From assembly GCA_046861385.1 (NCBI GenBank), contig JBHHTW010000051.1, positions 1 through 11,374 on the forward strand: DNA of 11,374 nt, read 5' to 3'. This document shows, in pieces, positions 3,583 to 10,911 of the stretch (position 1 is the first letter of the stretch; every line of letters starts with the position of its first letter). This stretch comes from Fidelibacterota bacterium (GTDB lineage Bacteria > Fidelibacterota > Marinisomatia > Marinisomatales > TCS55). Position numbers and translations under genes: made by a program. The notes under the pieces were generated by a model that worked only from the letters and a program-made list of their open reading frames with translations, searched no databases and was not told the DNA's origin.

Positions 3583-3982
3583 AATAAATTTTCAGAATAT
3601 GAATAGTATGGTGGGTTTGGATGCAACAGTGAATGGTAATATCAAACTTGACGAAGGTATTATTATTTATGGAACCGTTTTCGGCACGATTGAAACCAAT
3701 GGTGCAGTAAGGATTTCCAGATCTGGTAAGGTTCGCGGTAATATTGTTTGCAGTGATATTCACATCGGTGGTGTGGTTGAGGGAAATGTTGTTGTTGAAA
3801 ATCGTGCGGTGCTTGGAGATGCGTCGAATTTAGATGGTGATTTGACATATAAAACGCTCATTATCGAAGAAGGCGCACAATTCCAGGGGCAATGTATGAT
3901 ATTGGGGACTGACCAGTTAATCCAGGGAAATTCTATTAAAGAGACAGATCCTGCCGGCGATTCATTATCAGTTAATGAATGA
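3575..3982 (+). CDS. Bactofilin (polymer-forming cytoskeletal protein, CcmA family)
   Basis: Beta-helical repeats (ATVNGNI, GTVFGTI, GKVRGNI, GVVEGNV, LDGDLTYKTLIIEEGAQFQGQC); overlaps the M23 gene stop. Confidence 0.93.
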   Translation: MAKINFQNMNSMVGLDATVNGNIKLDEGIIIYGTVFGTIETNGAVRISRSGKVRGNIVCSDIHIGGVVEGNVVVENRAVLGDASNLDGDLTYKTLIIEEGAQFQGQCMILGTDQLIQGNSIKETDPAGDSLSVNE

Positions 3983-4219: not shown

Positions 4220-4585
4220 ATGTCAGCCATAAAATTTGCCATATTCATCAGTCTATTTTGTTTAGGAACTTTTGGACTCATTGTCGGGGGAATGGAATCT
4301 AATTACAGAGAAATATTTCTGGGTATGATTGCACCGTTAATTATAGGGATTGTGTCCATACTGTTTATATCTGATGTTCAGAAAAAGTCACCAGAAAAAG
4401 TAACAAATATCTTAATAAAAACCTTTCTAGTTAAAATGATTTTCTACGGTGTATATTTTATATATATTTTTACTTTTTACACTTTTAATCCAAAGCCATT
4501 TATTATTAGCTTCACCGGCTATTTTTTAACACTTCACGTAAGTGAAGCGTTGTTTTTAAAAACTATATTTACAAACAAACAATAA
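4220..4585 (+). CDS. AtpI-like four-TM membrane protein (ATP synthase accessory)
   Basis: 121 aa with four hydrophobic segments, located directly before atpB. The family call rests on position and hydropathy. Confidence 0.65.
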   Translation: MSAIKFAIFISLFCLGTFGLIVGGMESNYREIFLGMIAPLIIGIVSILFISDVQKKSPEKVTNILIKTFLVKMIFYGVYFIYIFTFYTFNPKPFIISFTGYFLTLHVSEALFLKTIFTNKQ

Positions 4586-8374: not shown

Positions 8375-9229
8375 ATGGCCAATCTAAAAGATATTCGGGA
8401 TCGGATCAAATCCGTTAAAAGTATCCAAAAAGTAACCAAAGCTATGAAAATGGTAGCAGCAGCAAAAATGCGCAGAGCCCAGGAACGTATGGAAGAGGCT
8501 CGACCTTATACCAAGCGTTTAGCTGGAGTGATTAATGATTTACTCCCGGATGTGGATCGTGATTTACTAGAATTATTGGATGTTCGAGAAGTAAAGCGAG
8601 TGGGATATGTTGTTGTAAGTTCCGATCGGGGAATGGCAGGATCTTTTAATACAAATCTTCTGAAGATTGCCCAGAATGAAATCGATAAAATTGGAAAAGA
8701 AAATGTGGATGTCTTCTGCATCGGGAAAAAAGCTCGGGACTATTTTAAGCGCCGCAACTATACGATGGTTCAATATTATACCGGCTTTTGGAACGAATTA
8801 AGTTTTGGCCATGCCATCAGTATTGGAGATAAAATTATCCATCACTTTACGGATAAACAAGTAGATGCAATTCACGTGGTTTATAATGAATTTATTAATG
8901 TAGCATCTCAGGAAGTACGATCTGAACTACTGCTGCCCTTAGTATTCGGAGAAACTATAAACCAAACTGCCGGTCGGATTTATGAACCCAGCAAAGAAAA
9001 AATTGTCAAAAGTTTAATTCCCCGTCACCTGAATATTCAAATGTGGAAATATTTATTGGAATCATTTGCGAGTGAACAGGCGGCTCGGATGCTTGCCATG
9101 GAAAATGCCACAGATAATGCTCAGGAAATGATTAAAGATTTAACATTGGAATTCAACAAAGCTCGGCAAGCAGCCATTACCACTGAAATGCTGGAAATCG
9201 TCAGCGGTGCTGAAGCTTTGAAAACTTAG
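8375..9229 (+). CDS. atpG: F1 ATP synthase subunit gamma
   Basis: RIKSVKSIQKVTKAMKMVAAAK, SSDRGMAG, SEQAARMLAMENATDNA and NKARQAAITTEMLEIVSGA motifs. Confidence 0.99.
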   Translation: MANLKDIRDRIKSVKSIQKVTKAMKMVAAAKMRRAQERMEEARPYTKRLAGVINDLLPDVDRDLLELLDVREVKRVGYVVVSSDRGMAGSFNTNLLKIAQNEIDKIGKENVDVFCIGKKARDYFKRRNYTMVQYYTGFWNELSFGHAISIGDKIIHHFTDKQVDAIHVVYNEFINVASQEVRSELLLPLVFGETINQTAGRIYEPSKEKIVKSLIPRHLNIQMWKYLLESFASEQAARMLAMENATDNAQEMIKDLTLEFNKARQAAITTEMLEIVSGAEALKT

Positions 9230-9299
9230 TGGTTAATTACAAAAAATTAAAATAGTCAATCAAAAAGAAAAAAATGAGAAATTATGAGAAAGAGATAAT

Positions 9300-9357
9300 G
9301 AATCGAGGAGTCAATGAGTCTGGAGTCGAGGAATCAGGAGTTAGGAGTTGATGAGCT
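9300..9357 (+). repeat. Left array: eight degenerate 7-8-bp units with a GAGTC-like core
   Basis: Cores at 9300 GAATC, 9308 GAGTC, 9316 GAGTC, 9323 GAGTC, 9331 GAATC, 9338 GAGTT, 9345 GAGTT and 9353 GAGCT (periods 8,8,7,8,7,7,8). Confidence 0.85.
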
Positions 9358-9418
9358 CATGTCTTTTTCGTTTCTGCCAGTTGACGGATTTGGAATAGAT
9401 GAGGAAAACAAAATATTA

Positions 9419-9464
9419 GTCTCACAGACTCCAAGACTCACAGACTCAAAGACTTATTAAACTC
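9419..9464 (-). repeat. Right array: six degenerate ~8-bp units with a GACTC core, inverted relative to the left array
   Basis: Cores on the + strand at 9419 GTCTC, 9427 GACTC, 9435 GACTC, 9443 GACTC, 9451 GACTT and 9460 AACTC (periods 8,8,8,8,9). GACTC is the reverse complement of GAGTC. Confidence 0.85.
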
Positions 9465-9480
9465 CAGAAATTAAAAATGA

Positions 9481-10910
<1,430 letters not shown>

Positions 10911-10911
<1 letters not shown>

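Follow-up and report, generated by a model that had tools for sequence, protein, structure and literature searches.

Intervening sequences (IVS) of 23S rRNA are the closest described counterparts of the element analysed here. Those of the Salmonella type hold no open reading frame (ORF) and comprise approximately 100 nt, and an ORF-bearing 23S rRNA IVS was reportedly described in Leptospira by Ralph and McClelland in 1993. To our knowledge, the function of the PF05635 protein family has not been established since the 1990s. Comparable short repeats occur in cyanobacteria as the STRR heptamers. The IVS in helix 45 of the 23S rRNA of Coxiella burnetii holds an S23p ORF and a stem of terminal inverted repeats that is cut by RNase III. 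This stem is 28 bp long and near-perfect, the S23p ORF is preceded by direct repeats of the heptamer GACAGAT, which vary in number, and the ORF itself decays (PMC4990558). Short tandem units also form inverted structures in Xanthomonas, where a survey describes 70–75 inverted pairs of convergent heptamer repeats (GGGAATC), along with an overabundance of heptameric repeats among bacteria in general (PMC4692102). Outside rRNA, and subscription journals excepted, no description of PF05635 genes lying between inverted short-unit arrays was found in the literature.

The element lies in an 11,374-nt stretch of DNA from a Fidelibacterota bacterium (contig JBHHTW010000051.1), analysed at its full length and hereafter called the window. 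According to Pfam, the contig holds, in this order, parA, parB, genes for an M23 peptidase and a bactofilin, an atpZ-like gene, and an unassigned 121-aa ORF, followed by atpB, atpE, atpF, atpH, atpA, atpG, atpD, and atpC. An earlier note on this DNA had singled out the atpG-atpD gap as by far the largest of the run, and it does stand apart: it measures 284 nt (atpG ends at 9229 and atpD starts at 9514), and all other junctions between 1942 and 10911 overlap or span at most 25 nt. The same note had placed a potential hairpin element at 9300–9464. The arrays are indeed found there, but the true element is wider since, judged against 33 empty junctions of related genomes, the whole of 9230–9513 is inserted DNA (Table 1). 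The insertion starts directly 3' of the atpG stop codon TAG (9227–9229) and ends before the AAGGGA of atpD. Its left flank can be aligned to the left flanks of the gene-bearing alleles described below, with 39 of 50 aligned positions identical to those of the relative G001. The ORF list contains no ORF of at least 60 aa in 9230–9513, and an Rfam scan over 9150–9600 (E up to 10) returned four chance-level matches, all well under their gathering scores. No convincing promoter was found in the gap, nor any promoter-like site within the arrays or the spacer between them.

Table 1. Features of the atpG-atpD region, in coordinates of the window
Feature	Coordinates	Strand	Basis
atpG (ATP synthase gamma), upstream host gene	8375..9229	+	PF00231, E 7.6e-102
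A-rich left flank of inserted cassette, outside arrays	9230..9299	+	missing from 33 short junctions
Left arm, GAGTC-type array, period 7-8	9300..9357	+	homologous to left arms of G001, G018, L042, L150
Spacer module with inner hairpin	9358..9418	+	fold; 51/58 positions identical to G001; unique in this genome
Right arm, GACTC-type array, 6 units	9419..9464	+	9419-9431 = codons 2-6 of G001 ORF
Right flank of cassette, then atpD ribosome-binding site (RBS) AAGGGA 9502-9507	9465..9513	+	aligns to G001, G018, L150
atpD (ATP synthase beta), downstream host gene	9514..10911	+	PF00006, PF02874

Both arms, which a 60-nt spacer keeps apart, consist of short units, counted here as five-mers within one mismatch of GAGTC (left) or GACTC (right). 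The left arm had been credited with eight units, seven of which stand (at 9300, 9308, 9316, 9323, 9331, 9338, and 9345; three exact), but the eighth, GAGCT at 9353, has two mismatches. All six units proposed for the right arm (at 9419, 9427, 9435, 9443, 9451, and 9460) are within one mismatch, three of them being exact. In 20,000 random segments of equal length drawn from the genome, counts peaked at 5 GAGTC-type and 4 GACTC-type units and averaged 0.55 and 0.46, respectively. TRF calls both arrays, with periods of 15 and 8/16, and a repeat finder places them in inverted relation, with arms of 23–26 nt that are 71–74% complementary; the complementarity of the arms is matched by 2 of 200 shuffles. 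In agreement with the earlier note, the linkers are not complementary: each arm has purine-rich ones (GAG, AAT, TG, and AG versus ACA, CAA, and AAA), so that only the GAGTC/GACTC cores pair. All exact units are also GANTC sites, which is probably a matter of chance.

When 9290–9475 is folded with RNAfold, the plus strand reaches -53 kcal/mol, compared to -40.7 +/- 3.7 for shuffled controls (z -3.3, 0 of 200), and the minus strand -48 kcal/mol (z -3.6), in line with the long stem that had been predicted; with a second shuffle set (n=100), the z-score of the element is only -2.55. The predicted stem is a series of 5–6-bp helices split by 2–3-nt purine-purine internal loops, and the RBS of atpD, approximately 40 nt 3' of it, stays free. 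Because many pairing registers compete, this long stem is confined to the MFE structure, which represents 0.002 of the plus-strand ensemble, and the plus-strand centroid holds the inner hairpin only. The latter, formed by 9364–9373 with 9397–9406 and by 9377–9380 with 9390–9393, appears in both MFE and centroid structures, just as the earlier note had drawn it. By eye, 10 nt of the spacer can be matched to complementary bases at the 3' end of the G001 ORF, probably by chance.

The history of this insertion can be read from the same junction in relatives. Among 41 genomes (the genome of the window and 40 relatives), atpG was found in 39, and the junction with atpD could be read in 37, two being cut by contig ends. 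In 33 of these 37 genomes the junction measures 12–67 nt and contains little beyond a TAAGGA-type RBS. The four long ones comprise the 284 nt of the window, 201 nt in G004, 694 nt in G001, and 884 nt in G018. G004, the closest relative, holds a GAGTC array, a scaffold gap of exactly 100 N, and the right flank. The G001 allele comprises, in this order, the left flank, the GAGTC arm, a spacer like that of the window, an ORF, the GACTC arm, and the right flank; its ORF encodes 135 aa, begins with ATG followed by GACTC-containing codons, and matches PF05635 at 3.8e-36. The G018 allele carries the cassette as in G001 but without the spacer module, and its PF05635 ORF is interrupted by an 86-aa GIY-YIG gene (PF01541, 3.3e-17) edged by a 12-nt inverted repeat. 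Two further alleles hold an intact copy of the gene: in L042, a Neomarinimicrobiota bin, it begins directly after atpG, and in L150, an unbinned metagenome contig whose atpD is 93% identical to that of the window, a long left arm and a partly deleted spacer are followed by the ORF directly before atpD.

Empty, gene-less, and PF05635-filled alleles are therefore all present, as an alignment of relatives had been expected to reveal. In the four filled ones (G001, G018, L042, and L150), GAGTC and GACTC arrays surround the PF05635 gene at the same junction, and their MFE folds pair the left arm with the right arm. The complete spacer is missing in three of the four. Comparison of filled with empty junctions gave no target-site duplication. 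In a metagenome scan, a 24-nt piece of the spacer had no matches. A 19-nt piece of the right flank gave 51 loci; 50 of these lacked any atpG or atpD match at E 1e-8 and were set aside as chance matches.

In a global alignment with G001, the gap of the window matches the left flank, the left arm, the spacer, and the first GACTC units, then leaves out approximately 410 nt corresponding to the ORF before picking up again in the right arm and the flank beyond it. The idea of the earlier note that this could be a cargo-less version of an element carrying a four-helix-bundle gene is thus directly supported, as a deletion of the gene is what separates the window from the filled allele. The window keeps a relic Shine-Dalgarno sequence (GAGGA, 9401–9405), and has ATA at 9413–9415 where the G001 ORF has its ATG start. 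The part of the right arm beyond 9431 is the counterpart of the G001 right arm downstream of the ORF, and the deletion junction falls at approximately 9430–9434, a position blurred by the repeats themselves. In an alignment of five alleles, the differences arise through deletions between short direct repeats, either in the leader or across the ORF, and in G001 the repeats common to both ends of the deletion comprise approximately 8–13 nt; the order of events rests on these five alleles, all genomes being metagenome bins. No close copy of the lost gene is found elsewhere in the genome, the best match (52% identity) being that on contig C78, where the arms are of the AAGGTTC type. As no PF05635 ORF lies between its arms, the element of the window is a derivative of the PF05635 cassette class rather than a full member.

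The identity among these cassettes exceeds by far that of the genes on both sides. Between the window and G001, 215 of 263 positions of the element are identical, the spacer being the best-conserved part (reaching 93% over 9388–9447), whereas only 30 of 87 fourfold sites in atpG and 36 of 125 in atpD are, which amounts to saturation. Similarly, the cassettes of G001 and G018 are 80–100% identical per 40-nt segment, and 98–100% over 120 nt of the ORF, versus 38 of 86 and 41 of 98 fourfold sites in atpG and atpD, respectively. On the AtpG tree, all carriers fall within one clade of 10 rows (support 100/97), where they form three sub-lineages, two of which have near relatives whose junctions are empty: G005, the sister of G001 (its atpG is 89.7% identical at the nucleotide level), and G008, which adjoins G018 and L042. 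With an identity of 82–100%, set against synonymous sites that have reached saturation, the cassette is far more recent than the genomes carrying it, which indicates horizontal spread, and spread to the same junction within one Marinimicrobia clade is the simplest reading. Between G001 and G018, no clear step in identity marks a recombination tract reaching into atpG or atpD. Without a sharp drop at the borders, site-specific insertion and homologous recombination through the conserved atp flanks leave the same picture.

The remainder of the 2.43-Mb genome is rich in similar structures. TRF finds many arrays of 7- or 14–15-nt periods, with units such as TGGTAAC/TGGTGAG, ATGGAAG, TAAAACG, and GATTGGT, and many of its contigs end within short-unit arrays, indicating that these repeats disturb assembly. 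The genome contains ten PF05635 matches, nine of them above the curated cut-off. For each, the 220 nt upstream were compared with the reverse complement of the 260 nt downstream against 200 shuffles. Inverted arrays around PF05635/TIGR02436 genes, which the earlier note had proposed, are recovered in this way: at eight of the ten loci, the flanks beat all but 0–7 of the 200 shuffles (0–2 at five loci, 5–7 at three). The flanks on C76 were reached by 15 shuffles, and those on C45, where the contig start cuts the left flank, by 137; for the atp element itself, the count is 2. Each PF05635 cassette of this genome carries its own unit. The nine other PF05635 matches have units different from that of the atp element, and six of them score against the G001 protein (at most 52% identity), with no score for the remaining three.

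No second paired array of GAGTC/GACTC is present in this genome, contrary to what the earlier note had suggested might be found; a 12-nt coding repeat on C70 is the sole other occurrence, and the atp element is consequently not multi-copy here. Its spacer and flanks have no other copy in the genome either. Gene-less hairpins built of other units do exist. Folded singly, 4890–5000 of C103 gives a z-score of -5.5, and candidates on C48, C6, and C42 give -2.9, -2.3, and -1.75, respectively; a further one, at 2670–2800 of C103, is unsupported as a hairpin (z 0.06). Of three genome-wide detectors of paired arrays, one was too strict and returned no pairs, another was too insensitive, with six pairs among which the atp element was missed, and a third was too noisy, with 30 null hits in 320 control segments.

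Beyond this genome, a search of public contigs with the G001 protein yielded 80 loci with 45–100% identity, 78 of which had flanks long enough for analysis. A 6-mer repeated upstream, whose reverse complement is repeated downstream, is present at 60 of these 78 loci, compared to 2 of 78 control segments. At least two GAGTC upstream together with at least two GACTC downstream of the ORF were found at 54 loci, and at least three of each at 44, whereas the reverse polarity (GACTC upstream, GAGTC downstream) occurs at one of the 78; among control segments, 6 of 144 contain at least two of either motif. The core is present down to approximately 47% protein identity, and remains constant while the linker sequence, the period (7–9 nt), and the copy number vary freely. 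More distant proteins are accompanied by AAGTCT, AAGTCCA, GGTTCAA, or AGTTTCC units. GAGTC-positive records come from Acidobacteriota (most of them), Marinimicrobia, Elusimicrobia, Desulfobacterota, Clostridia, and Acidiferrobacterales, six phylum-level groups whose labels were taken from the titles of bins and are to be read with that caveat. Both neighbours are co-directional with the gene at 41 of 70 loci, by a crude ORF call, and no rRNA or other Rfam family reached its gathering threshold in the 40 loci scanned of the 80.

Some of the association between the core and the protein clade is accounted for by co-inheritance alone. Nevertheless, that both arms have preserved a core of 5 nt, at a protein divergence that randomises neutral DNA, argues for a sequence-specific constraint on the core, beyond the structural constraint that pairing would impose. 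Since the core tracks the protein clade with a fixed polarity, a concrete hypothesis can be formulated, in which the PF05635 protein binds the repeats that flank its own gene. A tentative extension of this hypothesis, which we hold to be possible but not probable, is that the arms are arrays of a sequence-specific site, with the core GAGTC upstream and GACTC downstream on the coding strand, bound by the cassette's own four-helix-bundle protein, and that both travel together as a junction-targeting, horizontally spreading cassette. If so, the cassette would be an mRNA-borne counterpart of the rRNA IVS, and copies without the gene would represent operator arrays left without their protein, perhaps still subject to processing as dsRNA.

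Taken as a whole, 9230–9513 is quite probably the gene-less remnant of a horizontally acquired, IVS-like PF05635 cassette, whose gene was lost through a deletion of approximately 410 nt. This reading rests on results shown above, namely that the gap is homologous to the filled alleles but has lost the gene by deletion, that carriers are patchily distributed, that the cassette is young, and that a long stem is predicted. In the proposed sequence of events, the cassette would have consisted of a small gene for a PF05635 four-helix-bundle protein, with a (GAGTC-N2-3)n arm upstream and a (GACTC-N2-3)n arm downstream. Horizontal transfer inside one Marinimicrobia clade would have brought it to the atpG-atpD junction, where it came to occupy precisely the space from the atpG stop codon to the RBS of atpD. 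There it would ride on the transcript of the host operon, its arms presumably closing a stem as in an rRNA IVS. A deletion in this genome, with one end among the GACTC units where the ORF begins and the other in the GACTC right arm, would then have removed the gene. Both arms would have survived it, along with the one-time 5' leader and its hairpin, the relic Shine-Dalgarno sequence, and an inactivated start codon. This remnant is expected to be co-transcribed with the atp operon, and predicted to fold into the long stem.

Other origins of the element account for parts of these data. An intrinsic terminator or attenuator might be suspected behind a strong hairpin within an operon, as might arrays generated by replication slippage without any link to a cassette, but both appear scarcely credible: no T-run follows the stem, 9150–9600 contains no terminator-like sites, and the homology to the filled alleles reaches into the non-repetitive flanks and the spacer. 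An assembly artefact, in which the gene was lost when a short-read assembler skipped from one GACTC repeat to another, would fit the many contigs of this genome that end in short-unit arrays, as well as the scaffold gap of G004 at the same place. Nevertheless, it is highly improbable, as the repeats shared by the deletion ends are below usual k-mer sizes, the start codon has mutated independently, and no other contig contains a close copy of the gene. The order of events could also be reversed, with the gene-less hairpin as the primary element or landing pad, and the four-helix-bundle gene entering the right arm elsewhere. The structure of G001, which resembles nested hairpins with an inner left arm pairing with short internal GACTC units, is compatible with this, but the insertion of a gene into a pre-existing gene-less hairpin is less parsimonious. 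Moreover, the Shine-Dalgarno sequence and the opening codons of the G001 ORF persist in the window, as does the place of the start codon, now ATA instead of ATG; the complete spacer is missing from three of the four filled alleles, and L150, G018, and L042 are explained by further deletions in the same leader. The reversed order thus seems distinctly unlikely, and the descent of the gene-less allele from a filled one is preferred.

A different matter is whether the remnant, once formed, has been put to use. It might be an exapted regulatory RNA, the hairpin being kept after the loss of the gene for the benefit of the host; it could, for example, determine RNase III cutting or stability and thereby release the atpIBEFHAG and atpDC messages from a common stoichiometry. 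The conservation of the spacer between the window and G001 would be consistent with such a role, as would the significant stem and the presence of an RNase III gene in the genome, on contig C15 at 20713–21078; IVS stems are RNase III substrates (PMC4990558). However, 33 of the 37 junctions in related genomes do without the element, including sisters of carriers, and the youth of the cassette explains the high identity equally well, which makes exaptation an unlikely reading. As no cognate protein is left in the genome, the remnant of the cassette is most likely a tolerated orphan scar. If it still acted, it would do so as a dsRNA processing site for RNase III, splitting atpIBEFHAG from atpDC, by analogy with rRNA IVS. 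With its stem interrupted every 5–6 bp, it would be a poorer substrate than the near-perfect stem of Coxiella. Given these interruptions, the lack of a cognate protein, and the free RBS of atpD, a tolerated scar, possibly still nicked as dsRNA, is rated above an exapted regulator.

Compared to other mobile or repetitive elements, the atp element shares separate features with several of them. Like MITEs and REP palindromes, it is a small, non-autonomous-looking intergenic inverted repeat, and the product of an internal deletion in a gene-carrying parent; unlike MITEs, it is single-copy in its genome, shows no target-site duplication at the insertion borders, and has arms made of tandem arrays, and its parent cassette encodes no recognisable transposase. 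The four-helix-bundle fold family of its former cargo is related to that of Avd/bAvd from diversity-generating retroelements, and the G001 protein matches PF22296 weakly (E 0.0049, below the cut-off); among solved structures, it comes nearest to 2gsc (E 1.9e-12) and 2rld, each deposited with five chains. However, neither a reverse transcriptase nor template/variable repeats are found here; the filled alleles contain a single ORF between atpG and atpD, plus the GIY-YIG gene in G018. The inverted pairs of Xanthomonas are likewise intergenic, made of tandem 7-nt units, capable of forming stem-loops, and subject to fast length variation among close relatives, but they are tied to G-quadruplexes, and the available portions of that survey name no enclosed gene (PMC4692102). 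In contrast, the arrays of the atp type enclose, or once enclosed, a PF05635 gene, and their unit is clade-specific. The allele series would explain at least part of the inverted arrays of short repeats found between bacterial genes, as decayed cassettes of the rRNA-IVS protein family. As frequent contig break points, such arrays can also hide or delete small genes in annotation and assembly.

The 23S rRNA IVS themselves offer the closest comparison. With the ORF-less IVS of the Salmonella type, the atp element has in common that it is a short, gene-less hairpin in a housekeeping transcript, although the host context differs and, in the present case, descent from a gene-bearing allele is documented. 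The likeness to the ORF-bearing IVS extends further: the cargo belongs to the same PF05635 family, the inverted terminal sequences on either side of it form a closing stem, and the host is a highly expressed housekeeping transcript. Both also hold short tandem direct repeats in variable number between the stem and the start of the ORF, and in both the RNA stem tends to outlast a decaying ORF (PMC4990558). On the other hand, the atp element is found in an mRNA operon junction rather than in 23S rRNA, the defining location of an IVS, its arms are arrays of a 5–6-nt core with unpaired linkers, and its ORF is gone. What this locus adds to the described systems is a documented route from filled to gene-less allele at one orthologous site, the use of synonymous-site saturation as evidence of recent horizontal spread, and a GAGTC core that is found across phyla with a fixed polarity. 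The element is, in sum, an IVS-like cassette relic in an operon junction, which supports the earlier interpretation, and a single junction displays the life cycle of such elements as empty, filled, GIY-YIG-invaded, leader-deleted, and gene-less alleles.

In the arms of the gene-less cassette relic in the atpG-atpD gap of the window, between positions 9300 and 9447, every exact array unit is a GANTC site, as are two left-arm variants, with GAATC and GAGTC forms in the left arm and GACTC in the right. GANTC is the recognition sequence of HinfI/CcrM-type enzymes. In the genome holding the window (G000), GAGTC occurs 1034 times and GACTC 1004 times, about 0.6 of the number that base composition would predict by our own calculation.

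Where the left arm begins, ATGAGAAA is conserved in all five alleles of this junction, namely the window and the filled loci L013, L018, L042, and L150, where the L150 version reads GTGAGAAA. A short reading frame begins at this sequence and continues across the GAGTC units. In the two alleles translated by eye, the window and the relative G001 (locus L018), it spans 25 and 19 codons, respectively, and it is probably not coding.

Two of the filled alleles hold further features within the cassette. In G001, the spacer hairpin includes in its 3' strand the Shine-Dalgarno sequence (GAGGA) that precedes the four-helix-bundle ORF, and this hairpin could therefore make the cassette gene's ribosome-binding site inaccessible. 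In G018 (locus L013), the four-helix-bundle ORF is interrupted by a GIY-YIG gene that leaves pieces of 55 and 74 aa, and the borders of the insert carry a 12-nt inverted repeat (CCCCGTGAAATA / TATTTCACAGGG). This insert resembles a small selfish element that sits inside the cassette.

Features of the atp region and of arrays elsewhere in G000 (C-numbers, contigs of G000)
Feature	Location	Details
ATGAGAAA and frame opening there	window 9275-9352	also left flanks of L013, L018, L042, L150
Spacer hairpin, filled allele (G001)	L018:1300-1400, minus strand	counterpart of window 9360-9415
GIY-YIG gene, 86 aa	L013:2620-2910	G018, atpG-atpD junction; PF01541, E 3.3e-17
121-aa ORF	window 4220-4585	between atpZ-like gene (PF09527) and atpB
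Contig-end arrays	C15:1-75; C42:1-45; C75:1-34; C86:1-26 and 3740-3780; C93:47496-47551; C96:3-71; C99:3120-3179; C103:11454-11523	
Gene-less hairpin	C103:4890-5000	fold z -5.5
Gene-less hairpin	C48:1-110	fold z -2.9
Gene-less hairpin	C6:79310-79385	fold z -2.3
CTCCG blocks	C17:8-186	8-32, 85-109, 162-186

Many G000 contigs start or stop within 7/14-nt arrays, indicating that these arrays break the assembly and that the cassette count in this genome is therefore probably too low. Gene-less hairpins made of other units (TAAAACG, TGGTAAC) are found at three G000 sites, with folding scored against shuffled sequences. Near the start of another contig, three blocks of five CTCCG units each follow one another at a regular 77-nt spacing.

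Upstream of atpB, a Pfam search with the 121-aa ORF gave no match; judged by its position, this ORF may encode an AtpI-like protein.

The nearest solved relative of the cassette protein is XCC0516 from Xanthomonas campestris (PDB 2gsc). A strain of this species has also been reported, without explanation, to carry 70 convergent GGGAATC heptamer pairs (PMC4692102).
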